A stretch of 64,000 bases of DNA from a virus. Both the position numbers and the translations under genes were made by a program. Numbering within the stretch: the first letter of the stretch is position 1; each line of letters opens with the position of its first letter. A model generated the notes under the pieces. That model was not told the DNA's origin and made no database searches. It worked only from the letters and a program-made list of their open reading frames with translations. The stretch spans positions 61,866 to 125,865 of the IMG/VR virus record IMGVR_UViG_3300046092_000062. One strand, written 5' to 3'. Positions 3,084 through 22,667 of the stretch are shown here, piece by piece.

Positions 3084-4307
3084 ATGGCAAAGTTTTCGGA
3101 GAAGTTCTTCTGTCCTGCACCGTGGACAATGTTATACTATCATGCCAACTCTCCTAGTCCGTGCCACATGATTAAAAATTTAGAGATGGAAGCGACCCCA
3201 TCTGAATATTTTAATAGCGAATGGCTTAAGAATATAAAACAAGAAATGCAGCAAGGGATTGTTCCTGCTGCATGTTCTGGTTGTAAAGAGCGTGAGAGTC
3301 ATGGACTAAAAAGCACACGCGGCGCTATTTGGAATTACTATAATGTAGGACCTGAGCCCGAGTACGAAGATCAATGGTTCGCAAACAAGTTTACCGCAGA
3401 CAGCCCAACCGTTCCAAAAAGAATTGAGCTTAGGTTTAGTAATCTATGTAATATGAAATGCAGGATGTGCGACGAAACATCTAGTTCCAGCTTTGCAGCA
3501 GAAAAAATTGAACATAAGATTAAACCAGACAAAAACGGAAGTCATCTTGAGCATAGCGTGATACCCATCACAAAGATAGAAAACAATTCAATTGATGGCC
3601 TCATGGATACTGCCTTTCTAGCGTCAGTTCGAAAGGTATGTTTAACCGGTGGCGAACCATTTTTAATAAAAGAATATTACAGCTATCTAGATTACTTAAT
3701 AGACAACGGTTTTAACAAAACACTAGACGTAGAATTGTTTACAAATTGCAGTGTATATAATCCATTGTTTATTGATCGACTTAGTAAATTTAAAACAGTT
3801 CAAATGGTGATGAGCATCGATGCTGTGGGCAAAGCGGCTGAATATATTCGTAGTGGAACCGATTGGCCTAAAGTGGAAGCCAATGTGCTTCGACTAAATC
3901 AACTAGCAGCTCCATTTAAAATGGAAGTTACAACTGCCATATCTGCATACAGCCTAATGGACTTTGCAGAGACTGCACGATTTCTAATGAGGTTGTACAC
4001 CGAAAACAACACCATTGGCGTAAAATGTTACAACGTAACTTCGCCTCCGGGTATGCACTTTAATAATCTGCCTAAGCCGTTGAGAATACAAGCAATAGAT
4101 CAAATCGACAAGGCAGTAGAGATTCTAACAGCACCAAACTATTTGGTACTAGTTACAGAGTTGTTAAACGTGAAACACGCATTGACTACTTCGTCCCCGG
4201 ATACACCACTGGCATTCTTTGACTATACTAAGAAGTACGACACCATTAGGGGAGAGTCGTTTGCGGAAGTGTTTTTAACATCTCCTGACAGCACAGATTA
4301 CTTGTAA
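3084..4307 (+). CDS. radical SAM enzyme (CNMKCRMC = CX3CX2C) with an N-terminal Cys-rich domain; paralog of 49128..50156
   Basis: ORF 3024..4307 trimmed to the ATG at 3084, which follows an AGGAG ribosome-binding site and lies after tRNA-Phe. The radical-SAM cysteine triad is present. Confidence 0.7.
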   Translation: MAKFSEKFFCPAPWTMLYYHANSPSPCHMIKNLEMEATPSEYFNSEWLKNIKQEMQQGIVPAACSGCKERESHGLKSTRGAIWNYYNVGPEPEYEDQWFANKFTADSPTVPKRIELRFSNLCNMKCRMCDETSSSSFAAEKIEHKIKPDKNGSHLEHSVIPITKIENNSIDGLMDTAFLASVRKVCLTGGEPFLIKEYYSYLDYLIDNGFNKTLDVELFTNCSVYNPLFIDRLSKFKTVQMVMSIDAVGKAAEYIRSGTDWPKVEANVLRLNQLAAPFKMEVTTAISAYSLMDFAETARFLMRLYTENNTIGVKCYNVTSPPGMHFNNLPKPLRIQAIDQIDKAVEILTAPNYLVLVTELLNVKHALTTSSPDTPLAFFDYTKKYDTIRGESFAEVFLTSPDSTDYL

Positions 4308-5296
4308 AGGTTGGCCACATACACAATATGGTCAATGGGGTGGTCTTTCCAATTATACACTGCTGGTAGATGATGTTTAATCTCCATAATTACAAACGCT
4401 TGCAGCAATGAATGGCTTCGTAGAAAATCTGTTAACTTATAGGTTTTTCTAAATTGTTCAATTTCGCTAAACCATTGTAAGTTTTGCTGGGCATCAATGT
4501 ATGTTTGGTGGAATGACTTTGTGTAACTAGTATCAAATGTGCCAGCCCCGATAGAGTTAACAAAATTGTCGAACCAAGTGGGAAATCGATCGCTAACAAT
4601 ATCAGTTAACGAGATCTGGTACAGGTGATCTATTCGGTCTTTGGGTAGTACATAGGTTTGTTCGTTAACTTCATGCCCGTTGTGTTGATTCCGTACACGA
4701 TACCATTCAGAATACCATTCCAGCCCGCCGGATAACTTATCATAGTCGATGCCTCTAAGGAATGGGAAAATTTCGTAATACGATTCAACAAACAAATTCC
4801 GCGCCTCAATAGAGTCTTGACAATTAAAACTATCAAACCCAAACCGACGTTCGACTATTTGATTCGCCTTAAAGAAAACAGGCCATTTGGTGATAGTATT
4901 TAATGATCCGTATTTGCGATCGTCGAGTACATCGTTATCATTGATAATAACAATAACTGGATCGGGATCACTTAATAGTATCGATCGGATAGCCATGTCC
5001 GGTCTTGACACATCAAAAGATGTTGGTATGTCATGACAGTTGAGTAGAAAAACTTTTTTCTCTTTTGGTTGATTGTATGTCATCCAAATTAGATGTTGAT
5101 GAATACTTTGATGAGTTGGTATTCTTGCGTGTAAGTGCGCAGTACCTATTCCTCCAAACATCTCACTAACTTCTTTGTTTACTGGATCATCAACGGTTTG
5201 ACTAGCTGAGTCAATTTCACTTTTGTTGATGCACCAATGTATATAACTACCCGACGACCCCGGCGGGTATAATAGATAAATGTTCTTTGACAGCAT
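4298..5296 (-). CDS. hypothetical protein with P-loop-like YPPGSSGSY motif (paralog family with 6302..7141 and 36984..37766; possibly sulfotransferase-like)
   Basis: Minus-strand ORF 4298..5440 trimmed to the Met at 5296, because its N-terminal extension is antisense to tRNA-Thr. Confidence 0.5.
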   Translation of the reverse strand: MLSKNIYLLYPPGSSGSYIHWCINKSEIDSASQTVDDPVNKEVSEMFGGIGTAHLHARIPTHQSIHQHLIWMTYNQPKEKKVFLLNCHDIPTSFDVSRPDMAIRSILLSDPDPVIVIINDNDVLDDRKYGSLNTITKWPVFFKANQIVERRFGFDSFNCQDSIEARNLFVESYYEIFPFLRGIDYDKLSGGLEWYSEWYRVRNQHNGHEVNEQTYVLPKDRIDHLYQISLTDIVSDRFPTWFDNFVNSIGAGTFDTSYTKSFHQTYIDAQQNLQWFSEIEQFRKTYKLTDFLRSHSLLQAFVIMEIKHHLPAVYNWKDHPIDHIVYVANLYK

Positions 5297-5317
5297 GGAA
5301 TATTTATTGAAATAAAT

Positions 5318-5391
5318 GCTCTTATAGGTAAATGGTATATCGGCGCTGTGGTATAGCGCAGTCCTAAGTTCGATTCTTAGTAGGAGCACCA
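5318..5391 (+). tRNA. tRNA-Thr(GGT)
   Basis: Acceptor stem GCTCTTA/TAGGAGC, D arm GGTA-AATGGTA-TATC, anticodon arm GCGCT-GTGGTAT-AGCGC, T arm CTAAG-TTCGATT-CTTAG, and an encoded CCA end. Confidence 0.7.
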
Positions 5392-5406
5392 CGTGATAAG
5401 TATCTA

Positions 5407-6318
5407 ATGCAACATAATTTTTTACCATGTAAATATCCAATTATTTGTGCCCCGATGAATAGAGTGTCGGACGTTAAGCTAGCACTTGCAGTTCATAGAG
5501 CTGGGTGCTTGCCGAGCCTTGTGGTCCACAATCATGATGAATCTGAATTAGCTAACGATGTGGCTAAGATTGTGAACGAAATGAAAGAGTTCACAGAGCT
5601 GTCGGGATCAAGCGATTTTATACTTGCACTTAGATCAGATTTTTTATTAAAAGATACCAAGCTGCTCCCTGCGATGTTAAAGTACAGGCCTGCGTATGTT
5701 GAATTCTTTGACAATATTGATTGGTCTGACATAAAGGTGGTCAACCTTATTAAGCTGCTTAGAACATACAGAATTAAAATAATCTATAAAATACTTGCAC
5801 CTAGAATATTGGGCAAGTTAGTGGAATTTGTTGACGCTATTGACGTTAAGGGCCCTGATGCCGCTGCCCGTGTGAATACCACAACTACTACTAGTTTAGT
5901 AGATCGGATTAAGCAACTGAAATCCGCTAATCCACATTTGCACATTATTGCATCTGGTGGTATGTCATCGCAACAGGATGTGCAGGCATGTATTGACGCT
6001 GGCGCAAGTGCAGTGGCATTGGGCACAGTATTTGCCATGTCAGAAGAGTCGTCGATTTCAGTTGAGACAAAAATGAAAATGATTGAATCAACATTCTCAC
6101 AAGTTGTGAACATTGGCGAAGCCCAACAAAATGCGTTAGTGTTTACAAACGAAAAAGATGTTGACGGCAACCACACTGTGGGACTAGAACTTGGTATAAA
6201 AAGCCCAGTCGCTGGTCATGTGTTTGTGGGGAAAGCAATTGATTCAATTGACTCAATTAAAACAGTGGAAACAATCGTGTCGGAGCTAACTGGGGTAACT
6301 GATGCAAAAACCCGATGA
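5407..6318 (+). CDS. nitronate monooxygenase / FabK-like FMN-dependent TIM-barrel oxidoreductase
   Basis: Motifs PIICAPM and SDVKLALAV..AG, plus IIASGG...GASAVALGTVF, are typical of the NMO/2-nitropropane dioxygenase family. Confidence 0.6.
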   Translation: MQHNFLPCKYPIICAPMNRVSDVKLALAVHRAGCLPSLVVHNHDESELANDVAKIVNEMKEFTELSGSSDFILALRSDFLLKDTKLLPAMLKYRPAYVEFFDNIDWSDIKVVNLIKLLRTYRIKIIYKILAPRILGKLVEFVDAIDVKGPDAAARVNTTTTTSLVDRIKQLKSANPHLHIIASGGMSSQQDVQACIDAGASAVALGTVFAMSEESSISVETKMKMIESTFSQVVNIGEAQQNALVFTNEKDVDGNHTVGLELGIKSPVAGHVFVGKAIDSIDSIKTVETIVSELTGVTDAKTR

Positions 6319-7141
6319 TGTAACTATTTGTTACTTCGGGGGCAGCGGCGGCTTCTTTTGCTTGTACCTTCTTTTGCTTAGTAACCAATACCAATGCTGC
6401 TTCGAAAATGGGTCAGCTGACGCACACGTAACAAAAGTTACGCAATGGGATATACAGAATGTTTCCAATTGGAAAGATAATGAGATATGGCCTAACAACA
6501 GCAACACCAAAGCAGAGAGTTTCGATGTTAGCAAAGTCTTTTTTCTTTGTAACCCATTGCAATTAACGCAAAAGCCCGGAGTGCAAGATGACGTGCTATC
6601 TAAATGTCCAGGAAAGAAAATTCTATTGTACACAGATTTAGAAACACAATGGCATCTAACAAAAACTAAACGTGCCTACTGGTTTCAAAAAGGACAGCAG
6701 CTAAACGGACAAGGACCAAGTTGGCAGACAGCCGAATATCGTGAAGAACAAGTGCTAATATGGTATAATAACATCAGACAGGATAGCTGGCCTCAAATCT
6801 CCAAGGCAGATGATTTTTACAATCTTCCGCAGGAAATACAGGATATTTGTATAACTGACTATAGCATGTGGGAAGTCCTTGACATTGGCAAATTTGACAA
6901 TGATGACTACCGACCCCGTGGAGTAGAGTTTAGGGGAGACATAGTGTACAAGAAAGTAGTGGACATTATGCCTAAGATGGACATAGTGGTTAAGCTACAA
7001 GATTTGATTAAAACACAAGGCCGTGTGTTGTTCGACCAGCTTGGTATTGAGACAAACAAAGACACGCAAAAGTTCATAATCCAGTACCTGTCGTTGCACA
7101 CAGTCGAGCAGCGGAAATTCCTATTAGGCAAGCACATATAA
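6302..7141 (+). CDS. hypothetical protein, CYFGGSGGFF motif (paralog family X)
   Basis: ORF track entry. The N-terminal glycine-rich loop resembles the motifs in 4298..5296 and 36984..37766. Confidence 0.5.
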   Translation: MQKPDDVTICYFGGSGGFFCLYLLLLSNQYQCCFENGSADAHVTKVTQWDIQNVSNWKDNEIWPNNSNTKAESFDVSKVFFLCNPLQLTQKPGVQDDVLSKCPGKKILLYTDLETQWHLTKTKRAYWFQKGQQLNGQGPSWQTAEYREEQVLIWYNNIRQDSWPQISKADDFYNLPQEIQDICITDYSMWEVLDIGKFDNDDYRPRGVEFRGDIVYKKVVDIMPKMDIVVKLQDLIKTQGRVLFDQLGIETNKDTQKFIIQYLSLHTVEQRKFLLGKHI

Positions 7142-7166
7142 TCAATTTGGCAACCAACTCATAATT

Positions 7167-8375
7167 ATGATTAATTTAAAACTAGGATATTACTCATGCA
7201 ACGGAGTCACGTTCGATTCTAAGATTGCTGCATGTGTGTATTCTGTGCAGCACAATAACGCATTAGTTACGTGGACATTCAACGACCGAGAGTTTAATCA
7301 GCACAACTGGACACAAGAACCTGACCTAACACTGGATCAATTGTATGATATTAGATCAAAGCAGCTAAGAGATCAGTACGACTATGTTATATTGAGCTAC
7401 AGCGGCGGCGCCGACAGTCACAATATCCTAATGAGCTTTATTCGTCAAGGCCTCCATATAGACGAGATTGTGGTAAACACAACTGAGAAAGCTAGTGCAA
7501 GATTCACAGAGTTAGATAAAAACAATCTTGACCCCCGCAATGCAGGAGCAGAGCATGTGTTTCAGACGTTGCCTAGACTACGTGAAATTCAGGGATTGAT
7601 CCCTAAAACAAAGATTAGTGTGTTGGATTTGTCGGATCATCTATTTGAGAGTTTTTCAAAAGCCGATGATGCTAGCTGGGTATTAGAAAAGCGCGAAAGC
7701 CTAAACCCAGCTGGAGTAACACGGTTTAATTATCTGCACTTTGATCAATTGCGCAAACAGTTTGATAAAGATAAAAAAATTGCATTAGTGCTAGGAATCG
7801 AAAAGCCCAGGGTGTTTATTAGACACGGACAGTTGGTACTACGGTTTACAGACCGTGCGGCCAACATTGTTACTGTAGCAGAACACGTTAAAGAATACAC
7901 AAATAGCACAGTAGAATTCTTCTACTGGAGTCCAGATGCAGTGCCAGTGGTTATCAAACAAGCGCACACTATCAAGCGATGGCTTGAGGCTAATCCAGAC
8001 AAACAGCATCTCTGGGACGTTGACACACTAACACCGGAGATGGTGAGACTAGTGCATGAGCGAGTGTACAGACCACTGCTATACACTACGTGGGACAACA
8101 GTTGGTGGCAATCAAACAAAGCAGTTAACGATTGGACAAGCGAGTTTGACCAGTGGTTTAAGGATGGGTACAGTGATACTCGTGCTTACCAAGTGTGGGC
8201 AGAGGGTATTGAGTATGTTCGTGAAATTTTGCATCCTTACATAAACACTACTCATCTTGTTAATGGTCAAGCAGACGGCCTTGACATATTTGTTAAAGAG
8301 TACTTAATTGGACCAGTGAAAAATCTTTGTCCAGAATTAAAGAATAAACTGTATAGGCATTTGCAAAATAAATAA
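7167..8375 (+). CDS. PP-loop superfamily ATP pyrophosphatase (SYSGGADS; PAPS-reductase/CysD-like fold)
   Basis: An SGGxDS PP-loop motif lies near the N-terminus. Confidence 0.6.
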   Translation: MINLKLGYYSCNGVTFDSKIAACVYSVQHNNALVTWTFNDREFNQHNWTQEPDLTLDQLYDIRSKQLRDQYDYVILSYSGGADSHNILMSFIRQGLHIDEIVVNTTEKASARFTELDKNNLDPRNAGAEHVFQTLPRLREIQGLIPKTKISVLDLSDHLFESFSKADDASWVLEKRESLNPAGVTRFNYLHFDQLRKQFDKDKKIALVLGIEKPRVFIRHGQLVLRFTDRAANIVTVAEHVKEYTNSTVEFFYWSPDAVPVVIKQAHTIKRWLEANPDKQHLWDVDTLTPEMVRLVHERVYRPLLYTTWDNSWWQSNKAVNDWTSEFDQWFKDGYSDTRAYQVWAEGIEYVREILHPYINTTHLVNGQADGLDIFVKEYLIGPVKNLCPELKNKLYRHLQNK

Positions 8376-8382
8376 CTAGCGT
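8354..8382 (+). promoter_or_regulatory. sigma70-type promoter TTGCAA-17 bp-TATAAT
   Basis: The -35 and -10 hexamers match consensus with a 17-bp spacer. A small ORF and a tRNA cluster lie downstream. Coordinates are approximate to within about 2 bp. Confidence 0.45.
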
Positions 8383-8408
8383 GTATAATACACAGAAGGG
8401 ACGATGCA

Positions 8409-8543
8409 ATGAAGTCAAGAGAGACAATCGAAAAGGCATACGGCAACGTCCCAAAAGAAATTGGGGTCACAGTTGATGTATTTAACTGGGTCCCGGAGTT
8501 TAGAGGTGTTAAGTATTACTGGATTCGTGCAGTAAGATTTTTC
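8409..8543 (+). CDS. small hypothetical protein (44 aa)
   Basis: An ATG with an AAGGGA ribosome-binding site lies between the promoter and tRNA-Ser. The ORF is below the track's size cutoff. Confidence 0.3.
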
Positions 8544-8548
8544 ACCAG

Positions 8549-8639
8549 GTAAGAATACGGAGTGTGGGCAGGCCGGTAATGCAGCACCCTGCTAAGGTGT
8601 AGACTTGTGATGAGCAGGTCATAGGGTTCGATTCCCTAA
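8549..8639 (+). tRNA. tRNA-Ser(GCT)
   Basis: 91 nt long. Acceptor stem GGAGTGT/ACACTCC, anticodon arm GCACC-CTGCTAA-GGTGT, a long variable arm, T arm TAGGG-TTCGATT-CCCTA, and an encoded CCA end. Confidence 0.7.
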
Positions 8640-8657
8640 CACTCCGCCAGTGATAAG

Positions 8658-8733
8658 TAAGTATAATGCGGATGTAGCTCAGCTGGTAGAGCACAACGTT
8701 GCCAACGTCGAGGTCGTCGGTTCGAACCCGATC
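8658..8733 (+). tRNA. tRNA-Gly(GCC)
   Basis: Close to E. coli tRNA-Gly(GCC). Acceptor stem GCGGATG/CATCCGC, anticodon loop TTGCCAA, T arm GTCGG-TTCGAAC-CCGAT, discriminator U followed by CCA. Confidence 0.8.
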
Positions 8734-8738
8734 ATCCG

Positions 8739-8815
8739 CTCCATAAATGGCTCTCTAGTTCCAATTGGCAGAACATCGGATTCCAAATCCGAGTGTTGGG
8801 GGTTCGAATCCCTCG
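8739..8815 (+). tRNA. tRNA-Trp(CCA), D stem GTTC/GAAC, i.e. a U11-A24 pair
   Basis: Acceptor stem GGCTCTC/GGGGGTC, anticodon arm TCGGA-TTCCAAA-TCCGA, T arm GGGGG-TTCGAAT-CCCTC, discriminator G followed by CCA. Confidence 0.8.
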
Positions 8816-8820
8816 GGGGT

Positions 8821-9280
8821 CGCCAATATAATGAAATCAAAATTCTCCGATTCCCAATTACGCACAATCACGAAAGTGGTTACATACCGCGTGATTATCA
8901 CATGTAGTCACATCATCAATGGGTTTATTGTTAGTGGTAGTCTTGCTCTTGGATTGCAAATTGCAGGCCTAGCAGCAGTAATTAACAGTTTGTTATTTTG
9001 GCTACACGAGCGCATGTGGAATAGGCTACAATGGAAACGTCTCCATTTAAACAGTTCTACGTTCGTAGAAACCAATCCTAGAAGCATCAGTAAGATATTA
9101 ACTTGGCGCATTTTCTCAATGTCTAGTAATTTTCTCATCCCTTACTTGATAACTGGATCATGGGGATCAGCAGCGGCATTCCTTGGGATAGCAGTAATAG
9201 TTAACATGGCTCTATACTATCTACATGAACGAGTGTGGAACATAGTTAAGTGGGGTAAACAGGTCAACGGCCTTTGGTGA
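8821..9280 (+). CDS. small membrane protein with an internal tandem duplication (two LxxLHER(M/V)WN repeats)
   Basis: ORF 8765..9280 trimmed to the ATG at 8821, after tRNA-Trp. The protein has two hydrophobic repeats. Confidence 0.5.
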
Positions 9281-9342
9281 AATGGATATCATATCTGTCT
9301 TCGAAACAGATGGTGGGAGTTCGATCCTCTCAAGGCCGACCA
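9268..9342 (+). tRNA. tRNA-Arg(TCG)
   Basis: Acceptor stem CGGCCTT/AAGGCCG, D stem GTGA/TCAT, anticodon arm TCTGT-CTTCGAA-ACAGA, T arm GGGAG-TTCGATC-CTCTC, and an encoded CCA end. The 5' end overlaps the preceding CDS by 13 nt. Confidence 0.6.
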
Positions 9343-9348
9343 AAATAG

Positions 9349-9377
9349 TTGACTTAGTCAACGGCAGTGTGTATAAT
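9349..9377 (+). promoter_or_regulatory. sigma70-type promoter TTGACT-17 bp-TATAAT, with the palindrome GTTGAC-TTA-GTCAAC overlapping the -35 hexamer
   Basis: Consensus -35 and -10 hexamers, with a 7-bp-arm inverted repeat lying across the -35. Confidence 0.45.
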
Positions 9378-9604
9378 ACAAACTGTTCATAAAAGAGTTA
9401 GCCATGAGCAAGGCAGCTTTCTGTTACCAGTGGTAGGCGTAGTATCAATAATCTTGCAATTAGTGGCCTGTGTTTAAGTATCGGGAACCCCCGAGGCAAC
9501 AAAACGATTTTAAAATTGAGAACCGTTTCGAGCCCACAACGTGTGGTCTAGGTAGGCATTCGCAAGATGCTGCTTGATCTAGATCATGGTTGCCCATCTG
9601 ATCA

Positions 9605-10240
9605 ATGGGGACCAAGTGGTCCGCGGTTGAAAAACAGAATTACATGGCTAACCCTTTTATGAATACATTAACGTTTCAGACCCCGGTACGTATAGTTAAT
9701 AACTGGGATAAAACCACACAAGTAGCAAAGCACTGCATCGATCTAGTAAAGAGTCAATCGGCCAGTATCACTAGGGAATACAAGTACAGCGATTACGGAT
9801 ATCACTATGAACTAGGATCAACTGGCACAGTTAGTCACATCACTAACGGTAGTGCAGAATGGTATTCAGTGACTGGTAAGCTAATAGAATCTACCATGCG
9901 CTTTTTGCCGCTAATGCTAGATGACCTAGCAGACCTTGACCCTACGTTTGCTAGCATTAACTACATGGTGGGCAATGGCGCAGAGCATAGGGATCACGAA
10001 AGTCAGCAAACTGGGTTCAATTATTTTTTTGCTGATTGTGACAGCACTACCTACGCAAGAAACGCAGACATCTGCGAATCCTATCCTAGCGTAAAAGACA
10101 CAGGGTGGATCCTTGATATCCAACAACTACACAGCATCTCAAATACAAACGAACGCATTTGGTTTAACCTTAGATTTGGTAAACCCTTTGCATATTGCAG
10201 AGATTGGTTTGCAGATCATTTGGTATTAACTTATGAATAA
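9605..10240 (+). CDS. hypothetical protein
   Basis: ORF track entry. Confidence 0.5.
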   Translation: MGTKWSAVEKQNYMANPFMNTLTFQTPVRIVNNWDKTTQVAKHCIDLVKSQSASITREYKYSDYGYHYELGSTGTVSHITNGSAEWYSVTGKLIESTMRFLPLMLDDLADLDPTFASINYMVGNGAEHRDHESQQTGFNYFFADCDSTTYARNADICESYPSVKDTGWILDIQQLHSISNTNERIWFNLRFGKPFAYCRDWFADHLVLTYE

Positions 10241-11408: not shown

Positions 11409-11419
11409 TTTATCACAAT

Positions 11420-11503: not shown

Positions 11504-11533
11504 TTTATTATTTTAAGTTTTTCTAAAAAGTGC

Positions 11534-14297: not shown

Positions 14298-14304
14298 ATA
14301 TTGA

Positions 14305-14379: not shown

Positions 14380-14385
14380 ATACAT

Positions 14386-14460: not shown

Positions 14461-14468
14461 AAGGAAAT

Positions 14469-14550: not shown

Positions 14551-14577
14551 CCCCGCCTGGTGCGGGGTTTGCCATTT
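14551..14577 (+). terminator. rho-independent terminator-like hairpin CCCCGC-CTGGT-GCGGGG followed by a T-rich tail
   Basis: A GC-rich stem lies directly after tRNA-Gly. The U tract is short (TTTGCCATTT). Confidence 0.4.
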
Positions 14578-15034: not shown

Positions 15035-15057
15035 TAGCCCACTTCGGTGGGCTTTTT
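15035..15057 (+). terminator. rho-independent terminator AGCCCAC-TTCG-GTGGGCT followed by T5
   Basis: A GC-rich stem, a tetraloop and a U tract lie immediately after the dCMP deaminase stop. Confidence 0.6.
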
Positions 15058-15058
15058 C

Positions 15059-15118: not shown

Positions 15119-15280
15119 ATGTTTGAATCAATTGAAATCCGCAAAGCAGCAAACGGCTTTATCCTTATCGTGCATACCGAAGACGAAACAAAAGAATTTG
15201 TGTACGATACTGAACGCAAGCTGATGCGATCACTTAAATCGCAGCTGGGTCAAAAGATCACAGCTGACGACCAAGATTAA
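15119..15280 (+). CDS. small hypothetical protein (53 aa)
   Basis: The first ATG downstream of the promoter, inside track ORF 15047..15280. Confidence 0.35.
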
Positions 15281-16032
15281 TCTCTACGCTCGATATCTTC
15301 TTCAGTGCAGTGTTTGCCGTATTGTATCTCTACAATGCGACAAGGTGCAGTAAACGGATTGTGTAATCGATGCCATCCGTCTTTGGGTATATGGATACTC
15401 ATGTGTTCGCTTAATTGTTGAGCTGGCATATGGTATCCATTTTCCATTTGTTGCTCAGCAACACATTGTCCTTCGCTAACGTGCCAGTATTCTGCACGGT
15501 GCTGATGCCTTTGTAGACTGAGACTTTGTCCTGGATTGATAGTCAACTCCTTGACCTTAGTACCTGGCACATCGTGTAGGACACGATAGTAACCCCATGG
15601 GCGTTCTGTCTTAGGTGCTTTCCATTCTTGTAGAATCCAGCTTGAACTGTTGGCCTTGTTTTCACCACCAACACCAAACACAAACTCTACTCCAGTAACT
15701 GACATTTCGGGGATGTTGTCTCGTGTTCTATCGCCACCATTGGCAAAGATGATTTCATCGTTGGGATATTGTGCTTTAAGCTCTTCCAGTAACTTAATGG
15801 CACTACCATCGCTGTCGTCCCAGTAAGTGGTTTGGGTAACATACTTGATCTTGCTTACAACAGCATATCGTTCGTCCCATGGCATAAATGCTGCACCCTT
15901 TTTGCGTTGTAGCCAAGCGTCACTGTTTAGGCCGACGACCAAGATATCGCCAAGTTGGCTTGCTGCTTTGAGATAGGCAATGTGCCCACTATGGATAGGA
16001 TCAAACCCACCGGTTACGATTACAATTTTCAT
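15277..16032 (-). CDS. bifunctional cytidylyltransferase-like nucleotidyltransferase ([10 protein letters not shown], HxGH) fused to a cupin domain
   Basis: The N-terminal HxGH motif fits the Rossmann-like nucleotidyltransferase family (RfaE-II/TagD-like). The C-terminal third looks like a cupin beta-barrel. Confidence 0.6.
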
Positions 16033-16129
16033 ACAAATATTTATTCGGTGGTCTTGCTCTTGCTTTTAAAACTTGATCCTTGTAAAATAGCTAAAATAAA
16101 TACCTTATCAACTATTATTGGAGAATTAC

Positions 16130-17161
16130 TTGTCAAAGACTGTACTTATTACCGGCGGAGCCGGTTTCATTGCTCACCACGTTATTGAGCGCATCCTAAA
16201 AACTACAGATTGGAATATTGTTAGCTTAGATCGCTTAGACTATTCGGGCAATCTAAACCGTCTACATGACATGATGGAAGAGATTGCGCCAGAACAGCGC
16301 AAACGCCTACGCATTGTATGGCACGATCTCAAAGCAGAGATCAATCCACTGACTACCAGCATGATTGGTGATGTGAACATTGTGCTGCACTTGGCTGCTG
16401 GTTCGCACGTGGATCGTTCTATCGAATTCCCAATGGAGTTTGTAATGGATAACGTTGTAGGCACAACCAATCTCTTGCAGTATGCTCGTACTCTTCCGAA
16501 CCTTGACCGCTTTGTTTACTTCTCGACAGACGAAGTGTTTGGTCCAGCACCCAATGGTGTTAGCTACAAAGAATACGATCGCTACAATAGCACGAACCCT
16601 TATTCAGCAAGTAAGGCAGCAGCAGAAGAAATTTGCGTTGCATTTGAAAACACTTACAAACTTCCTATCGTAGTTACACACACTATGAACGTGTTTGGTG
16701 AACGTCAGCACCCTGAGAAGTTTATCCCAATGGTAATCCAGAAAGCCCGTGATGGCGAAGTGGTAACAGTTCATAGCGATCCAAGCAAGACCATTGCAGG
16801 TTCACGTCACTATATCCATGCTAAGGATGTAGCAGATGGATTGATGTTTATCCTTGAAAATCTCAAAGACTATAAGCACACAGGTGATTACGGTGGTGCC
16901 AAGTGCCCTAAGTTTAACCTTGTTGGTCCAGAAGAAATTGACAACCTTACACTTGCTAAAATGATTGCAGCAGCAGTTGGCAAAGAGTTGGTATACGAAA
17001 TGACAGACTTCCACAGCAGCCGTCCTGGTCACGATCTACGTTATGCGCTCGATGGTGGCTTGCTAGCTGAACTAGGATGGACTCCTAAAATCAAACTTAG
17101 CGAACGTGTTAAGGAAGTGGTTGAATGGACACTAGCTAATAACCGTTGGTTGCGTAAATGA
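16130..17161 (+). CDS. NAD-dependent nucleotide-sugar 4,6-dehydratase/epimerase (SDR family; GGAGFIA and YSASK)
   Basis: A Rossmann GxxGxxG motif and a YxxxK catalytic motif are present. There is no ATG, so the TTG at 16130 after a GGAG ribosome-binding site was chosen; the TTG at 16118 is an alternative. Confidence 0.7.
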   Translation: MSKTVLITGGAGFIAHHVIERILKTTDWNIVSLDRLDYSGNLNRLHDMMEEIAPEQRKRLRIVWHDLKAEINPLTTSMIGDVNIVLHLAAGSHVDRSIEFPMEFVMDNVVGTTNLLQYARTLPNLDRFVYFSTDEVFGPAPNGVSYKEYDRYNSTNPYSASKAAAEEICVAFENTYKLPIVVTHTMNVFGERQHPEKFIPMVIQKARDGEVVTVHSDPSKTIAGSRHYIHAKDVADGLMFILENLKDYKHTGDYGGAKCPKFNLVGPEEIDNLTLAKMIAAAVGKELVYEMTDFHSSRPGHDLRYALDGGLLAELGWTPKIKLSERVKEVVEWTLANNRWLRK

Positions 17162-17868
17162 AACATTGCTTTATTGTAACTAGTGCAGTTAATAGCCGCT
17201 TTGGGGTATATTCCCCAATTGAGCGGCTAGAGCAAACAGTGACTACCGTTGCTAGTATTCGCAAGCATGTGCCGGATGCTAAGATTGTTATTATGGAAGT
17301 GACAGGGGTTCCTGTCACAGCAGAACAGACTGCAATCTTGTCTAGTGTATGCGATGTGTTCTTGGACTTTACAGACGAAGCAGAAGTGCAAAAACTTTAT
17401 CACAGTACAGACAACTGGGATGTGGTAAAGAATGGCACTGAGATCATGTGCTTTGGCCAAGCACTGAAATTGCTTAAAGAAGACGGCGAGTTTGTGGGCA
17501 TCGATCGTATTCACAAGATGTCAGGTCGTTACGTAATTAATGACTTGTTTGATCCTGAGCTATACGAAACTGAAGCAGACAAAATCATTATCGGGCGTAA
17601 GCATAAGAGTCAATTCCCTGTTGAGGTAACGCAGCAGTCTTGGCAATACATGGCACGACTATGGTCATGGCCTATTGCACTACTAGACGAAGTCATTGAG
17701 GTATACGACAACAGTTTCGCACACTTCAACGAACGAGTTACAAATGGAGGCTACACGGACATTGAGCATGTGCTTGCTAAATTCCTTAACCCTGCTCATG
17801 TAGTTGAAGTAGATCAAGTTGGCGTAGAAGGGGCCATTGCACCTAACGGTTCATATATTAAAAACTAA
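17158..17868 (+). CDS. hypothetical protein
   Basis: ORF track entry, in a run of genes with overlapping start and stop codons. Confidence 0.5.
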   Translation: MKHCFIVTSAVNSRFGVYSPIERLEQTVTTVASIRKHVPDAKIVIMEVTGVPVTAEQTAILSSVCDVFLDFTDEAEVQKLYHSTDNWDVVKNGTEIMCFGQALKLLKEDGEFVGIDRIHKMSGRYVINDLFDPELYETEADKIIIGRKHKSQFPVEVTQQSWQYMARLWSWPIALLDEVIEVYDNSFAHFNERVTNGGYTDIEHVLAKFLNPAHVVEVDQVGVEGAIAPNGSYIKN

Positions 17869-18647
17869 TGATAAACAACCACAACTGGAATCAAATCCAG
17901 CAAGACTTTTTACAAGCCAAGCCATTTAATTATGTAGTAATTGACAATTTCTTCACAGACGCGGTCGCTGCACAGCTAGTTGCAGATTTCCCGTCGTACG
18001 ACAACACAGTTTGGAATGCACACTATCACAATGCACTAGAAGATAAGAAAGCATGTAATCGCTGGGATAACTTTCCTGCAACCACATACAAGGCATTTTC
18101 TTATTTGACAGGAGCAACATTTACATCACACATGCAACACCTATTAGGTGATGCCGATCTTGCAGCCGATGTTGGACTGCATGGTGGTGGATGGCACGCT
18201 CACACTAAAGGCGGGAAGAACAACATCCACTTGGATTACAGTATTCATCCCAAATTGGAATTGCAACGCAAGCTCAACATTATCATTTACATCAGTCCTG
18301 AATGGGATACTGCATGGGGCGGCGGCCTAGAGATTTGGGATCACAACGAAGAAACAGGCGGCCCCGGGCAATGTGTGACTACTGTTGAAAATCGTTTTAA
18401 CAGAGCAGTAATTTTTGATACTACACAAAATTCATGGCACGGCCTGCCTAAGGAACTCAACTGCCCAGACGGCAGTGTTCGTCGTAGCCTAGCAGTGTAT
18501 TATGTCACTGATCCAGCAACAAACGCAGATCCACGCGGTAAAGCATTATTTGCACCATACGGCGACCAAGCAAACGATCCAGACGTGATCGAACTAATTA
18601 AAAAACGTAGCAACGTTACAAACGCACCCGGAGTTTACAAAGCATGA
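17868..18647 (+). CDS. 2-oxoglutarate/Fe(II)-dependent oxygenase (HxD...H; PhyH/prolyl-hydroxylase-like)
   Basis: An IHLD motif and a distal NSWHG His are present, with RAVIFD as the putative 2-oxoglutarate-binding arginine. Confidence 0.55.
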   Translation: MINNHNWNQIQQDFLQAKPFNYVVIDNFFTDAVAAQLVADFPSYDNTVWNAHYHNALEDKKACNRWDNFPATTYKAFSYLTGATFTSHMQHLLGDADLAADVGLHGGGWHAHTKGGKNNIHLDYSIHPKLELQRKLNIIIYISPEWDTAWGGGLEIWDHNEETGGPGQCVTTVENRFNRAVIFDTTQNSWHGLPKELNCPDGSVRRSLAVYYVTDPATNADPRGKALFAPYGDQANDPDVIELIKKRSNVTNAPGVYKA

Positions 18648-19366
18648 TTAAATTTTATTTACACGTACCAGAGTTAACTGGTTGGCAATCAGTTCTAGTT
18701 GAGATGCTAGAGAAAATGGACAACAGCGGCCTAATCAATCGCGCAGACGAAATCATCTTCTGCTTAAATGGTGTTAAGAGCAATATGGAAATGTTCCTGT
18801 TGCCCATCCTTAAATCTAATCCTAAATTTACAGCAGTGCAAGTCCATGGCGATGCTACTAAGTGGGAATGGCCTACTATTAACAAAATCAAGCAGGATGC
18901 TGATTCTAGCGAAGATGAGTACACAATTGGTTACGCACACCTTAAAGGGCTCAGCAGAGAAAATGTTGCAGACCAAAAGGCCGCAGATTGGCGCAACTAT
19001 CTAACATACTGGACAATCGAGCAATGGGAAAAATCTCTCGAAGAATTGTCTAAAGGGGTTGAAGTAGTTGGAGTCAACTGGTTGGATCATCCGTTCCCTC
19101 ATTTCTCAGGAAACTTTTGGTGGACAAATAATAACTACATCCGACGCTTGCGTAAACTGTCAGACCCTGCTACAATTGAGTGGGGCAAGGAAAGTTTATA
19201 CTTGCCGGGAGTTAAACTAGATCCGGGTAACTTTAGATTTGAGCATGAGGCATGGATCGGCAGCGGAAAACCTCTGCAAACAAACATGCACTCAAGTCAT
19301 GTTAAAGGAGACCCTAGCTTCCACTACAACAACGAATATCCTTCTTCTAACTACAGAACTGAATAA
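18644..19366 (+). CDS. hypothetical protein
   Basis: ORF track entry. Confidence 0.5.
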   Translation: MIKFYLHVPELTGWQSVLVEMLEKMDNSGLINRADEIIFCLNGVKSNMEMFLLPILKSNPKFTAVQVHGDATKWEWPTINKIKQDADSSEDEYTIGYAHLKGLSRENVADQKAADWRNYLTYWTIEQWEKSLEELSKGVEVVGVNWLDHPFPHFSGNFWWTNNNYIRRLRKLSDPATIEWGKESLYLPGVKLDPGNFRFEHEAWIGSGKPLQTNMHSSHVKGDPSFHYNNEYPSSNYRTE

Positions 19367-20592
19367 TGACATCTTGCAAATCAATTGACGCCTGCCTTGC
19401 TTGTGGTAGCAGCCACTTAACTCTTGAACTAGACTTAGGCAACCAAGCCCTTGCCAATGCTTGTATTTCGGACTTACAAGGTGACGAACTAAAGTTCCCG
19501 TTGGCCGTTAACAGATGCGAGCACTGCAATCATTTGCAATTGACTCACGCAGTTGACCCTGCACTGATTTACACTCACTACCTCTACGTAAGTGGTACAA
19601 GTAAAACAGGGCGTGATCACTTTGAGTGGTTCTCTAAGTTTGCAGTTGAGTACATGGGCAACTATCCAATGACAGTATTGGACATTGGTTGCAACGACGG
19701 TACACAATTAGATTACTTCAAACAGTTGGGATTGAGAACCACTGGTGTTGACCCTGCTGAAAACCTGTACCCGGTTAGCAGCAAGAATCACAATATCTAC
19801 TGTGACTTCTTTAGCTCAACGTTAACTGAACAACTAGCCAAGGACGAAATATTCTTTGACATCATTACAGCGCAGAACAGCTTTGCTCACAATCCGGATC
19901 CACTGACTTACATGAAGAACATCAAGAGATTGATGCGTAATGGTAGCAAGTTCTTTATTCAAACAAGCCAAGCTGACATGGTCGTAAACAACGAGTTTGA
20001 TACTATCTATCACGAGCATGTAAACTTCTACAACATCAACAGCATGAATGAGTTGTGCAAACGTGCTGGATTGTATCTAGAGGATGTGGTCAAGTGCCCT
20101 ATCCATGGCACAAGCTATATCTTTATTGTTAGCAAAGACAAACAACGTCCCGAACACATCAAGAACTTGATTGCAAGCGAAGCTAGTAAAGGACTGCTAA
20201 CAGCAGACACTTACGACCGTTGGGCATTTAATGCCAAAGAGTTAGTAGAGGAATTGGTTGGTAGTGTTGAAGTATACGTAGAAAAGTACGGCTATAGAGC
20301 CATTGGTTATGGCGCGGCAGCTAAAGGCAATACTCTGCTACAGTTTAGTGGACTCAAGCTGGAAGCCATTATTGATGACAATCCTCTGAAGCAAGGTCTG
20401 TACAGCCCTGGTGCAAATATTCCTATTGTGCCAATTGACTATTTGGATCAGTTCGGCGAGGATGATACAATTATCTTCATTCCACTGGCATGGAATTTCT
20501 ACGAAGAGATTCGTACCCGTATTCAACAGAAGCGTAACTATCGCGGTGATCGTTATGTTAAGTATTTCCCTAAAGTAGAGATAGAACAATGA
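19366..20592 (+). CDS. SAM-dependent C-methyltransferase (N-terminal CxxC..CxxC zinc finger followed by methyltransferase motif I LDIGCNDGTQL; NDP-hexose C-methyltransferase-like)
   Basis: The zinc-ribbon-plus-methyltransferase architecture is typical of the TylCIII-type sugar C-methyltransferases. Confidence 0.6.
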   Translation: MTSCKSIDACLACGSSHLTLELDLGNQALANACISDLQGDELKFPLAVNRCEHCNHLQLTHAVDPALIYTHYLYVSGTSKTGRDHFEWFSKFAVEYMGNYPMTVLDIGCNDGTQLDYFKQLGLRTTGVDPAENLYPVSSKNHNIYCDFFSSTLTEQLAKDEIFFDIITAQNSFAHNPDPLTYMKNIKRLMRNGSKFFIQTSQADMVVNNEFDTIYHEHVNFYNINSMNELCKRAGLYLEDVVKCPIHGTSYIFIVSKDKQRPEHIKNLIASEASKGLLTADTYDRWAFNAKELVEELVGSVEVYVEKYGYRAIGYGAAAKGNTLLQFSGLKLEAIIDDNPLKQGLYSPGANIPIVPIDYLDQFGEDDTIIFIPLAWNFYEEIRTRIQQKRNYRGDRYVKYFPKVEIEQ

Positions 20593-21476
20593 AACTAGAA
20601 GTACCAATTGGAATCCTACTTCGACGCCGTGCTGCACTTGGTGATGTGATTATTACCACAGGCGTTGTGCGTGAACTAAAAAACATGTACGGTGACAACT
20701 GTGTAATCGATGTGCATACTGAGTATCCGCAAGTGTTTAAACATAATCCTCATGTGCGTAATGTGATTCACACAGACACCGAAGTTGATGCAGCGGCATA
20801 CGATGTGTTCTATAACTTAGATGACACATACGAGTATAACCCAGATGGGCACTTTGTTGACAATTACTTCTATCGGGTTTTTGGTAACACAAATATGGAC
20901 AAGAGCATGGAATTGTTTATTGGTAATGCGCAAGTCGCAGAAGTTGATAAACTAGTTGCATCAATCAACAGTCCGTTTGTGGTAATTCATATGCGCCGCT
21001 GGCACTGGGAATTGAAAAATATTGCAGTAGAAGTTTGGATAGACGTTATTAACAAAATCCTTGCAGCAGATCCTTCTGTTAAGATTGTGTGTACAGGCGG
21101 CCCAACGGATTATGCACCCGAAGGTAATCCTAGAGTAATTGACGCTAGAGGCCTTGACGCAGGATCAACTTGCTACTTAATGGATAGTGCTAAGTGCTTT
21201 GTGGGCATTGACTCGGCGCCATTTCACATTGCTGGAGCAAGTGAAACTCACATTGTGGCATTACTGAGCCACATGTATCCAGACCGTGTGTTGCCATTCC
21301 GTAATGGAGTGATGGGCGATAACTGCACAGTCATTCAAGCCAGTGTGCCCTGCGTTGGATGCCATGCTAGACAGCAACGCCCAGTTCGACAAATTGTATG
21401 CGAACGCAGCGACTACGCTTGTAATAAGTCATGGGATATTGCTGCAATTGTAGACGCAGTAGTTAAACAATTATGA
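20589..21476 (+). CDS. glycosyltransferase family 9 (heptosyltransferase-like)
   Basis: RRRAALGDVIITTGV matches the GT9 N-terminal motif, and FVGIDSAPFHIAGA matches the GT9 C-terminal motif. Confidence 0.65.
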   Translation: MKLEVPIGILLRRRAALGDVIITTGVVRELKNMYGDNCVIDVHTEYPQVFKHNPHVRNVIHTDTEVDAAAYDVFYNLDDTYEYNPDGHFVDNYFYRVFGNTNMDKSMELFIGNAQVAEVDKLVASINSPFVVIHMRRWHWELKNIAVEVWIDVINKILAADPSVKIVCTGGPTDYAPEGNPRVIDARGLDAGSTCYLMDSAKCFVGIDSAPFHIAGASETHIVALLSHMYPDRVLPFRNGVMGDNCTVIQASVPCVGCHARQQRPVRQIVCERSDYACNKSWDIAAIVDAVVKQL

Positions 21477-21847
21477 TCGTGTCTATTCCAGTAAGCATTG
21501 GGGAATTGTTTGATAAGATAACAATTCTCCAGATCAAAAGTGAGCGTATCAAGGATGCAACTAAGTTGGAAAATGTTAAGACCGAACTGTATCATCTCTA
21601 TGTATCGCTAAATGAATTATCACTGCCCGACGTAGATAGTTATGTGGCTGAACTAAAAGCCATTAATAGCGAACTGTGGGACATTGAAGACTTTAAACGT
21701 GCATGTGAAAAGAAGCAATCGTTTGACGCCGAGTTTATTGAAGCAGCAAGACAAGTATATCTTAAAAACGATAAACGGGCAGCTATTAAGAAAGCAATCA
21801 ACGACATCTGCGGCAGCACTATTACTGAAGAAAAGAGTTATGAGTAA
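21473..21847 (+). CDS. hypothetical protein
   Basis: ORF track entry. Confidence 0.45.
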   Translation: MIVSIPVSIGELFDKITILQIKSERIKDATKLENVKTELYHLYVSLNELSLPDVDSYVAELKAINSELWDIEDFKRACEKKQSFDAEFIEAARQVYLKNDKRAAIKKAINDICGSTITEEKSYE

Positions 21848-22667
21848 AAGCATTACGTTAGTCACTGTAGAAACCATGTACCACAACTTAGCTCGTCGTG
21901 CATTAGAAGAAACACTCAAACACATTGACGTTAAAGAAGTTGTGGTATTCAGTGACAAAGAGATCCTACCTGGTAGCACAACAGTGCTTACCAAGCCCAT
22001 CAAGAGCTTTAGGGACTACAACGAGATTATGCTTAAAAACATGTGGCCGTTTATTGACACTGACCATATCTTGTTTGCACAGTGGGATGCAATGGCATAC
22101 GATGGTACCAAGTGGACTGATCAGTTTCTCGAGTATGATTACATTGGTGCAGTTTGGCCATGGGCACCCGAAGGCCAAAACATGGGCAACGGTGGGTTCT
22201 CTCTACGTTCACGTAAGCTGTTATTGGCTTGTAAAGATCCTGCAATTCAGTTGCATGAAAAACGTAAGTTCATTGAGGAAGACGCAGTCCAGTGCGTTGA
22301 CCATAGGCAGCTCTTAGAGAGCAAGTACGGTATTAAATTTGCGCCAACTGCCTTAGCACAACAGTTTAGTCACGAGATACAAGAAGGCTCATATGAATAC
22401 AAACCAGGATTTGGATTTCACGGACAATGGAATGTGGTTAAGTTAGCTGACTTGGACGTAGTTGATTACTTTATTCCTAGGATGGACTACAAAGGTTGGA
22501 ACATACATAAATGGCATCATTTCTTGTACGAGCTAGGCGAACGAGCAGAAGCGCACTACCATATGCCGTTTGTGATGCAGCAGATTACACAACACAGTCC
22601 TGAGCTGGTGCTCCCGGTAATGGAATGGCTTGCGAGACACAGCGAATTCTGGGCCGCAGCAACGTAA
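21840..22667 (+). CDS. hypothetical protein (possible nucleotide-diphospho-sugar transferase fold)
   Basis: ORF 21684..22667 trimmed to the ATG at 21840, which follows the upstream stop. Confidence 0.45.
   Translation: MSKSITLVTVETMYHNLARRALEETLKHIDVKEVVVFSDKEILPGSTTVLTKPIKSFRDYNEIMLKNMWPFIDTDHILFAQWDAMAYDGTKWTDQFLEYDYIGAVWPWAPEGQNMGNGGFSLRSRKLLLACKDPAIQLHEKRKFIEEDAVQCVDHRQLLESKYGIKFAPTALAQQFSHEIQEGSYEYKPGFGFHGQWNVVKLADLDVVDYFIPRMDYKGWNIHKWHHFLYELGERAEAHYHMPFVMQQITQHSPELVLPVMEWLARHSEFWAAAT

Follow-up and report, generated by a model that had tools for sequence, protein, structure and literature searches.

The DNA analysed here, called the window throughout, is a stretch of 64,000 nucleotides from IMG/VR virus record IMGVR_UViG_3300046092_000062 (positions 61,866 to 125,865). 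Its interval 3084-22667 is read as two units that are inherited separately and do not form one pathway, a reading held with a probability of about 0.6. Unit A (3084-11408) comprises radical S-adenosylmethionine (SAM), flavin-type and PP-loop enzyme genes intercalated in a tRNA array. Unit B (15277-22667) comprises an eight-gene operon and a divergent activating gene, which probably provide a nucleotide-activated 3-C-methyl-6-deoxy hexose (or 6-deoxyheptose) together with soluble transferases that would pass it on; which sugar, nucleotide and acceptor are used, and how the last reduction is made, are predictions from sequence.

An earlier sequence-only reading had described the interval as one accessory island of about 20 kb, carrying a nucleotide-activated (methyl-branched or heptose-like) sugar pathway with a transferase, built around radical SAM enzymes. 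The pathway and its transferases stand, at 15277-22667 and not over the whole interval. The single island does not, since the first two thirds are a tRNA array with intercalated open reading frames (ORFs) and not a contiguous gene island. Nor is there support for a pathway built around the radical SAM enzymes: tRNAs, a GOLLD RNA and a terminator intervene, and Unit A genes were found at 0 of 14 non-sister C-methyltransferase loci. When the family calls of that reading were put to profile searches, most of them held, the exceptions being the number of radical SAM genes, a proposed family of P-loop paralogs and a borderline GT9 assignment.

The same separation is seen from the side of Unit A. 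The C-methyltransferase and GT9 genes were found at 0 of 80 loci of the radical SAM family with an N-terminal twitch (N-twitch) domain, and in no PP-loop lineage apart from the sister genomes and one group (L036/L037). The PP-loop gene is associated with tRNA arrays: among 30 lineages dereplicated at 80% identity, 15 had at least three tRNAs within 10 kb, versus 0 of the 14 non-sister C-methyltransferase loci used as controls (Fisher p 0.0013), and 10 of the 30 had a tRNA within 2 kb. Because the two distributions are largely non-overlapping and Unit A tracks tRNA arrays, Unit A is not treated as a source of steps for Unit B.

The PP-loop protein (P0001) and P0121, a homologue of the radical SAM protein rSAM1 (100% identity over 93% of the query), are each found on a 320,767-bp Joint Genome Institute (JGI) metagenome contig. 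Two sister genomes, IMG/VR contigs of 354 kb and 240 kb whose proteins are about 90-99% identical, keep the entire arrangement, and megablast of the 20-kb interval against 50,697 phage records returned tRNA-sized matches only. At about 40% identity, the primase-helicase resembles its counterparts in Agrobacterium phage Atu_ph07 and Pseudomonas phage PA5oct. The source is classed as an uncultured aquatic jumbo myovirus, a distant relative of these two phages and not a cyanomyovirus.

Unit B and its cassette in ocean metagenomes

What the sequence-only reading called a cytidylyltransferase-cupin fusion is confirmed as a two-domain protein (15277-16032, minus strand), in which a nucleotidyltransferase of the HldE domain II/TagD type (PF01467, 50.7 bits against a cut-off of 21) is fused to a type II phosphomannose isomerase (PMI) cupin (PF01050, 83.4 bits against 23.6). 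It has a ten-residue HxGH-class motif, matches the NCBIfam profiles rfaE_dom_II (E 5e-18) and GMP_PMI (E 9e-21), and falls in PHROG 7878. Such a protein would activate a hexose or heptose 1-phosphate. Its gene is divergent from eight plus-strand genes at 16118-22667, in which every junction overlaps by 1, 4 or 8 nt and no plus-strand terminator was found by a terminator scan; the eight genes are one co-directional operon.

The first operon gene (16118-17161) encodes a 4,6-dehydratase of the RmlB type acting on nucleoside diphosphate (NDP) sugars, with a match to PDB 1g1a at E 8e-48 and the motifs STDEV and YSASK. The earlier call of an NDP-sugar 4,6-dehydratase/epimerase is supported for the dehydratase class, with TIGR01181 (242.9 bits) below its cut-off of 365.1 and the nucleotide and sugar specificity predicted only. 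By its family and catalytic motifs, the enzyme would turn an NDP-sugar into an NDP-4-keto-6-deoxy sugar. A methyl branch derived from SAM would then be set at C-3 by the product of 19366-20592, the zinc-finger C-methyltransferase of the earlier reading, which was borne out in full. This protein matches PDB 4rv9 (E 9e-60, residues 4-385) and 3ndi (E 5e-48) over its full length, contains PF08421, PF13489 and PF08484, all above cut-offs, and carries an N-terminal Cys4 zinc domain with a CLAC...CEHC motif. It has the full architecture of the NDP-hexose 3-C-methyltransferase family of TylC3, TcaB9 and KijD1, from which its activity is predicted.

Three products of the operon are candidates for moving the sugar or sugars onto an acceptor in the cytoplasm. 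The gene at 17158-17868, whose fold the earlier reading had missed, encodes a probable GT-A-fold nucleotide-sugar-binding protein, recognised from its structural neighbours, the nearest of which include protein-glycosylating enzymes and viral capsid-glycan transferases. It is a putative glycosyltransferase; a sugar-1-phosphate nucleotidyltransferase is less likely. A search of PDB sequences with the profile of its family, which counts about 970 proteins, gave nothing usable, and none of the 185,579 bacterial and archaeal species genomes scanned by motif held a relative. The GT9 heptosyltransferase-like enzyme of the earlier reading is a putative GT-B protein at 20589-21476, for which the assignment is borderline: PF01075 reaches 22.2 bits where 22 are required, and the orthologues are annotated with this family, yet the match spans only some 45 residues (195-239). 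TIGR02201 is matched at E 8e-10 over 30 residues, and the motif resembles that of heptosyltransferase III/RfaQ. The third candidate, probably also a transferase, is the DUF5672 product of the last operon gene (21840-22667; PF18922, 65.8 bits), whose ATG at 21840 overlaps the preceding gene by 8 nt.

The remaining operon genes are less readily placed in the route. The 2-oxoglutarate (2OG)/Fe(II) oxygenase proposed earlier is confirmed at 17868-18647 as a member of the prolyl 4-hydroxylase family (PF13640, 56.5 bits), with an H121-L-D motif and a distal His. A 240-residue protein at 18644-19366 matched nothing in Pfam, PHROG, NCBIfam or PDB, and weak homologues of it adjoin C-methyltransferase genes in L059 and L061. 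A DUF6165 protein is encoded at 21473-21847 (PF19662, 45.6 bits), with a homologue of 47% identity that adjoins the epimerase gene in Synechococcus phage S-SRM01.

A compact form of this operon is found in many ocean metagenome contigs as overlapping genes for the dehydratase (346 residues), the GT-A protein (240), the C-methyltransferase (405-408) and the GT9-like protein (296), with the same overlaps in contigs L056 and L076-L079. The ocean cassettes are accompanied by one or two extra short-chain dehydrogenases/reductases (SDRs), a GT17-like gene and an FkbM methyltransferase. The 2OG oxygenase gene is absent from the minimal cassette of L076-L079; in the window it is inserted together with 18644-19366, and the DUF6165 and DUF5672 genes are appended. 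Adjacency of dehydratase and methyltransferase genes was also seen in L058, L059 and L062-L064, and in L078 an Rpb6-like gene and a dCMP deaminase gene lie 5' of the cassette in the order seen in the window. Among the 50,697 deposited phage genomes, close relatives were found for the dehydratase only. The best matches to the C-methyltransferase are 24-30% identical and come only from uncultured megaphages and one Synechococcus phage, and none of the cultured phages among these genomes carries the 3-C-methyltransferase cassette.

Enzyme genes within the tRNA array

The array at 139-14542 was mapped with ARAGORN and Rfam. It contains 16 tRNA genes, all on the plus strand, and the gaps between intercalated protein genes and tRNAs are mostly 2-18 nt. 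A gap of 15 nt separates tRNA-Phe from rSAM1 (3084-4307, plus strand), which is convergent with Ploop1 (4298-5299, minus strand); 18 nt further on lies tRNA-Thr, and after another 15 nt an NMO-like gene (5407-6318). This gene is followed by 6302-7141 and by the PP-loop gene (7167-8375), with tRNA-Ser 183 nt beyond. A DUF2061 gene (8828-9280) begins 2 nt after tRNA-Trp and overlaps tRNA-Arg by 13 nt, and 262 nt after this tRNA come 9605-10240 and rSAM2 (10233-11408), the latter ending 11 nt before tRNA-Leu. All but Ploop1 are on the plus strand. These genes would encode accessory enzymes that are probably co-transcribed with the array, supplied by a phage IscU, and drawn from three classes of chemistry, namely radical SAM, flavin redox and ATP-dependent C-N bond formation giving an amide or amidine.

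Three radical SAM genes had been counted in the interval; CX3CX2C motif and Pfam scans of the large ORFs found two. The N-twitch enzyme rSAM1 scores 35.2 bits with PF04055 (cut-off 29.5) and 277.7 with NCBIfam NF033640, 'N-terminal twitch rSAM' (cut-off 170), and its cluster motif is CNMKCRMC. In rSAM2, a CNLDCDYC motif is combined with a Cys-rich, SPASM-like C-terminal region containing eight invariant Cys; PF04055 (27.9 bits) falls just below its cut-off, PF13186 is not matched, the NCBIfam matches span the radical SAM core only, and tblastn against cultured phages gave no match. The third gene lies outside the interval (49128-50156, minus strand), where a second copy of one radical SAM enzyme had been predicted. 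It is an N-twitch paralogue of rSAM1 (26% identity, E 6e-21; NF033640, 208.3 bits) with the motif CNSTCVTC, and its PF04055 score of 29.0 bits is just under the cut-off. Viperin-like, QueE-like and RiPP-maturase (ribosomally synthesised and post-translationally modified peptide) matches among the NCBIfam profiles were rejected for these radical SAM proteins, all lying far below cut-offs and covering the radical SAM core only. The phage IscU predicted elsewhere in the window is present as an iron-sulfur (Fe-S) scaffold at 59452-59844 (plus strand), with the motifs GAPACGDVM and LPPVKIHCS.

The PP-loop call also stands. The protein of 7167-8375 has an SGGADS motif and, with an SGGxDS motif on a Rossmann-like alpha/beta fold, is a PP-loop ATP pyrophosphatase resembling the C-terminal domains of AsnB and beta-lactam synthetase. 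The likeness to AsnB is at fold level only: PF00733 (asparagine synthetase) and the other Pfam and NCBIfam profiles are not matched, and a profile of the family finds nothing in PDB. The protein has no N-terminal nucleophile (Ntn) glutaminase domain and no conserved Cys, and its 70-residue N-terminal domain is unique. Two fusion proteins of the family, P0377 and P0496, showed no informative extra Pfam domain.

The flavoenzyme described earlier as NMO/FabK-type is supported in part, as an FMN TIM-barrel-like protein. PF03060 is matched above its cut-off (62.1 bits) over residues 155-233 only, and FabK TIGR03151 reaches 57.9 bits (E 1e-15, against a cut-off of 453), again with partial coverage. 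The loop that usually carries the catalytic His (G-x-E-A-G-G-H) reads GPDAAAR here and has no His. The proposed P-loop paralogs, the 333-residue Ploop1 with its Gly-rich PPGSSGS motif and the 279-residue, GGSGG-containing product of 6302-7141, were not borne out as a family, with no detectable similarity to each other (BLASTP E 0.62) and nothing found for either in Pfam, PHROG or NCBIfam. Ploop1 has a 74% identical orthologue in the same position in L010, and homologues of the 6302-7141 protein were found in sister genomes only, at 82% identity. The DUF2061 gene encodes a small membrane protein (PF09834, 103 bits, with transmembrane segments), and such genes occur near PP-loop genes in seven loci. 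The 211-residue protein of 9605-10240 has an invariant H128-x-D130...H176 and no family match in Pfam, NCBIfam or PDB; its gene overlaps that of rSAM2 by 8 nt, is translationally coupled to it, and is kept with it in L010 and L081. Two candidate relatives were rejected for lack of similarity: a 450-residue protein of L047 for rSAM2, and the c91 proteins found 3' of PP-loop genes in distant loci for the 9605-10240 protein. The concatenated Unit A proteins gave weak radical SAM and TIM-barrel matches only against cultured phages.

Placement beside tRNAs is shared by relatives of these enzymes. Orthologues of rSAM1 (44-79% identity) lie 10-50 nt from tRNAs on both sides, with the pairs Trp/Lys, Ala/Thr, Leu/Gly and Phe/Leu, and an N-twitch group of 25-30% identity is likewise flanked by Gly/Val. 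N-twitch radical SAM genes were seen as single ORFs between tRNA genes in L082-L085, L097, L098, L100 and L074, with flanking tRNAs that vary by lineage, which looks like tRNA-punctuated expression or repeated insertion. In L010 a compact block of 53-74% identity reads Ploop1 (minus strand), tRNA-Thr, NMO, PP-loop, the 9605-10240 homologue, rSAM2, tRNA-Leu. An NMO-like gene is found in the PP-loop neighbourhood at 17 of 52 loci, mostly directly adjacent, and the enrichment of PP-loop genes beside tRNA arrays and transfer-messenger RNA (tmRNA) genes holds down to 28% identity.

The PP-loop family is large (1629 clusters at 50% identity) and, by the searches made, phage-restricted. Among predicted viral structures it was found in uncultured Caudovirales only, and the scan of bacterial and archaeal species genomes gave one relative. 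This is L080 (NZ_JBBAKG010000090.1), a 23-kb contig from a Haliscomenobacter sp. metagenome-assembled genome (MAG) that holds 28 tRNAs, a tmRNA and two PP-loop paralogues and is probably a phage contig mis-binned into the MAG.

Other features accompany the family. The tmRNA genes beside large tRNA arrays lie at L041 8250-8617, L044 8778-9183, L051 6425-6825 and L080 2244-2649, and tmRNA tags in PP-loop-bearing contigs read ANDEKFALAA, ANDDVYSLAA and ANDEQFALAA. Homologues of TctC/Bug solute-binding proteins, which are of a periplasmic, carboxylate-binding type, stand directly beside PP-loop genes in many lineages, in up to three copies (L071 11182-17091; L072 11160-12038; L033 5889-6842 and 14397-15311); genes for fatty-acid desaturases and hydroxylases accompany them. 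Other PP-loop-like families, divergent and at least three in number (SGGIDS, SSGLDS, SGGSES), as well as second copies of the main family, also lie beside the PP-loop gene, examples being L033 8775-9926, L009 4742-5665, L006 14886-15803 and L080 13324-14532; one divergent protein has a weak QueC match (23.2 bits). ARAGORN reported a CTA-anticodon, amber-suppressor-like tRNA (given as tRNA-Pyl) in L089, some 1.8 kb 5' of its radical SAM gene at 10001, and tRNAs with four-base anticodon loops in L089 and L040 (2777-2850); suppressor or frameshift tRNAs are possible.

Downstream of rSAM2, a 2-kb gap left unannotated by the sequence-only reading contains a full-length GOLLD RNA (12540-13006, plus strand; Rfam RF02032, 198.8 bits against a gathering threshold of 150, model positions 1-416). 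A tRNA-Lys(ctt) gene (12603-12675) is embedded within it, mid-array, and the RNA is kept in a sister genome (L054 3429-3894, 196.1 bits). Three small ORFs (12345-12584, 12645-12878 and, on the minus strand, 12987-13313) are taken as spurious because they overlap the GOLLD RNA, which belongs to no enzyme pathway. Two sigma-70 promoters that match the consensus at 12/12 positions (TTGACA-17-TATAAT), 11359-11387 and 11534-11562 (plus strand), flank tRNA-Leu, directly upstream of the GOLLD region; over the whole promoter scan, 49 sites were found versus 42.8 +/- 6.9 in shuffled sequence, that is, no excess over expectation. The array also includes a dual-specificity phosphatase-like protein (313-888, plus strand) and an RF-1-domain protein (1495-1884, plus strand; ArfB/peptidyl-tRNA-hydrolase-like, 76 bits). 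After it come a dCMP deaminase gene (14560-15033, plus strand; PF00383, 82 bits) and, 3' of this, a bidirectional terminator-like hairpin (15036-15053), with one small ORF between the hairpin and the minus-strand nucleotidyltransferase-cupin gene.

Elsewhere in the window, three consecutive fibre-like proteins (41465-45425, within the 41465-46644 region, plus strand) begin with Mtd_N domains, the first 59 residues being 64% identical in two of them. After them comes a fusion of DUF6817 with another 2OG oxygenase, the second in the window. One more Mtd_N protein, the fourth, has a pectate-lyase-like domain and starts at 62422. Downstream of the sugar operon lie genes for a rubrerythrin-like protein (25802-26326, plus strand), which may protect Fe-S enzymes, and an SPFH/Band-7 protein (31584-32435, plus strand).

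Rival readings and the acceptor of the sugar

The interval could still encode a single integrated pathway, in which the radical SAM, NMO-like and PP-loop proteins tailor the nucleotide sugar of Unit B by uronate oxidation, amidation or radical rearrangement. This is considered unlikely, though several loci point towards it. In L047, a PP-loop homologue (29% identity) and the nucleotidyltransferase-cupin gene (57%) are tightly packed, in one direction, with a pair of N-twitch radical SAM genes and with genes for an FkbM methyltransferase and an SDR epimerase; the neighbours in L043 include a UDP-glucose/GDP-mannose-dehydrogenase-like gene, NMO, PP-loop and the cupin fusion; and one run of genes in L033 includes both the cupin fusion and a PP-loop paralogue, not far from a class I glutamine amidotransferase. 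For the PP-loop subfamily of such sugar contexts, ATP-dependent amidation of a sugar carboxylate is a reasonable guess. However, these homologues are 29-31% identical to the window protein and perhaps form another subfamily, whereas those above 50% identity sit with NMO, TctC-like, DUF2061 and fatty-acid desaturase genes and not with sugar genes. The two gene sets, with their largely non-overlapping distributions, are further parted in the window by eight tRNAs, the GOLLD RNA, the perfect-consensus promoters and the terminator. A different role for Unit A, judged somewhat less probable again, is that of a phage modification set for tRNA (or structured RNA) expressed with the array, put at 30 tRNAs in this reading, and with GOLLD, the Cys-less PP-loop protein making an amidine or amide on a base in the manner of TilS and the radical SAM and flavoproteins carrying out further base chemistry. 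It would account for Unit A genes lying 2-18 nt from tRNAs, for rSAM1 orthologues flanked on both sides in differing arrays, and for the enrichment of the PP-loop family by tRNA arrays and tmRNA across lineages; the ArfB-like protein in the same array and a sub-threshold match of the fusion protein P0496 to TilS-type PF01171 (E 0.0055) are consistent with it. Yet no significant profile match to TilS, MiaB, TYW1, Dus or QueC/E was obtained, tRNAs are missing from the surroundings of half of the PP-loop lineages and of most distant N-twitch radical SAM loci, and many unrelated accessory genes occupy the same hotspot. If it were true, the PP-loop family would represent a novel class of enzymes that amidate RNA bases.

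For Unit B, the alternatives concern the acceptor. Phage (virion) proteins are ranked first, tentatively and at less than even odds, because polytopic membrane proteins are absent from the window, as are a flippase, a polymerase and a lipid-carrier transferase, because a prolyl 4-hydroxylase-type enzyme stands in the operon, and because the nearest GT-A neighbours include enzymes that glycosylate proteins and viral capsids. Remodelling of the host surface, that is, the lipopolysaccharide (LPS) core or O-antigen, which would block superinfection or grazing, is a close second choice, with the inner-leaflet LPS core as the acceptor. It is the role usually proposed for cyanophage 'LPS' genes, and homologous cyanophage clusters have been so interpreted (PMC9602691). 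The nucleotidyltransferase domain best matches heptose-1-phosphate adenylyltransferase, most characterised GT9 enzymes act on the lipid A-core, and the GT9-like motif resembles that of heptosyltransferase III/RfaQ. The GT9 match, however, spans 30-45 residues only, and GT9-related enzymes, namely autotransporter heptosyltransferases, also glycosylate proteins. No ligase is encoded in the window beside the membrane functions already named as missing from it, and the GT-A family, with no relative in the bacterial and archaeal species genomes, was not recently acquired from a host LPS locus. DNA comes last. Hypermodification of phage DNA by a sugar or other adduct on a base would fit the dCMP deaminase beside the operon and the several glycosyltransferase-like proteins, and DNA glycosylation is a known strategy of phages. 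It is nevertheless set aside as very improbable because no hydroxymethylase, DpdA or DNA glucosyltransferase genes are found in the window; the negative, which extends to 5-hydroxymethyldeoxyuridine (5-hmdU) kinase and to homologues of the T4-type DNA glucosyltransferase, applies to these 64 kb of a genome of about 320 kb. In addition, the C-methyltransferase family acts on NDP-4-keto sugars, and the assembled contigs are free of signs of sequencing trouble.

The reading of two units, with a methyl-branched sugar made by Unit B, has several points against it. Neither a 4-ketoreductase nor an epimerase could be recognised in the operon of the window, at a point where relatives carry extra SDRs, and this leaves the end product of Unit B undefined. 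Since the nucleotidyltransferase is of the HldE-II/TagD class and not RmlA, its nucleotide and sugar are guesses; the transfer roles of the GT9 and DUF5672 proteins are weak or nominal, the choice of acceptor is inference only, and the window shows no collagen-like repeats that would mark a substrate for hydroxylation or glycosylation. As for Unit A, a functional link to sugars is possible, given the sugar-nucleotide contexts of its homologues in L047, L043 and L033. In the contrast of 15/30 with 0/14, the control loci possibly come from phages without any tRNA array. The same tRNA region repeatedly harbours phosphatases, an HNH endonuclease, dCMP deaminase and solute-binding proteins, and the tRNA association of Unit A may be that of a mere accessory-gene hotspot.

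Under the two-unit reading, Unit B contains a compact and defined cassette (4,6-dehydratase, GT-A protein, 3-C-methyltransferase and GT9-like protein), widespread in ocean viromes, absent from cultured phages and open to reconstitution in vitro. A methyl-branched deoxysugar from a phage would, if true, be a new viral glycan building block, and identification of its acceptor would tell whether such clusters serve virion decoration or host disguise. The preference of an abundant phage-restricted PP-loop family and of the N-twitch radical SAM family for tRNA arrays gives a lead to the function of both.

Comparison with known systems

The sequence-only reading had found no known phage pathway with this combination of genes. 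This holds for cultured phages, but the general kind is not new, since large marine phages have already been described as carrying sugar or 'LPS' clusters (PMC9602691, PMC3037559). Those of large marine cyanophages contain dTDP-glucose dehydratase, GDP-mannose enzymes, type II PMI, many 2OG oxygenases and several transferases, and have been read as putative cell-surface modification (PMC9602691). The window shares with them the type II PMI cupin and 2OG oxygenases and, set beside their several glycosyltransferases (PMC9602691), has several candidate ones; its dehydratase is 66-68% identical to the 'nucleotide-sugar epimerase / dTDP-glucose 4,6-dehydratase' of the T4-like cyanophages (cyanomyoviruses) S-SM2, S-SCSM1, P-SSM2, S-SSM7 and S-SRM01. 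The S-SRM01 cluster also has DUF6165 and homologues of both unknown proteins. The window differs in its 3-C-methyltransferase cassette, found in no cultured phage, in the fusion of its PMI cupin to an HldE-II-like nucleotidyltransferase, and in belonging to a jumbo virus and not to a cyanomyovirus.

Models for the chemistry are the actinomycete antibiotic pathways of TylC3 (mycarose), TcaB9 (tetronitrose) and KijD1 (kijanose), which use the same three-domain methyltransferase with a Cys4 zinc site and in which an RmlB-type 4,6-dehydratase likewise precedes, giving the 4-keto substrate. The window operon, in contrast, lacks genes for a 2,3-dehydratase, an aminotransferase and a dedicated ketoreductase, its activating enzyme is not RmlA-like, and it stands in a phage setting with transferases of its own and not in a natural-product cluster.

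Chloroviruses (PBCV-1 A064R) and mimiviruses (R699, L230) encode both sugar-nucleotide enzymes and soluble GT-A transferases, as the phage of the window probably does. A hydroxylase next to transferases, as in Mimivirus L230, may be likened to the 2OG oxygenase within the window's operon. Unlike this phage, they are giant viruses of eukaryotes in which glycans on the capsid or fibrils have been demonstrated, and they show no sequence-level homology to the window.

For Unit A, the nearest comparisons are with AsnB, the C-terminal domains of beta-lactam and carbapenam synthetases and the N-acetyl-sugar amidotransferases, from which the PP-loop protein of 7167-8375 differs in lacking membership of any Pfam, NCBIfam or PDB profile. 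Set against AsnB-type PP-loop amidotransferases, it lacks the Ntn glutaminase, has its own 70-residue N-terminal domain and belongs to a phage-only family. Nishimura et al. 2017 described marine T4-like viral genomes that encode IscU/ATC and, as in the window, combine an IscU with several radical SAM enzymes (PMC5332604); those genomes are of another viral lineage, and neither functions nor a placement in tRNA arrays were reported for the genes (PMC5332604). Phage sugar clusters as such are already known, and what is new here is the defined cassette and the tRNA-array placement of two large enzyme families.

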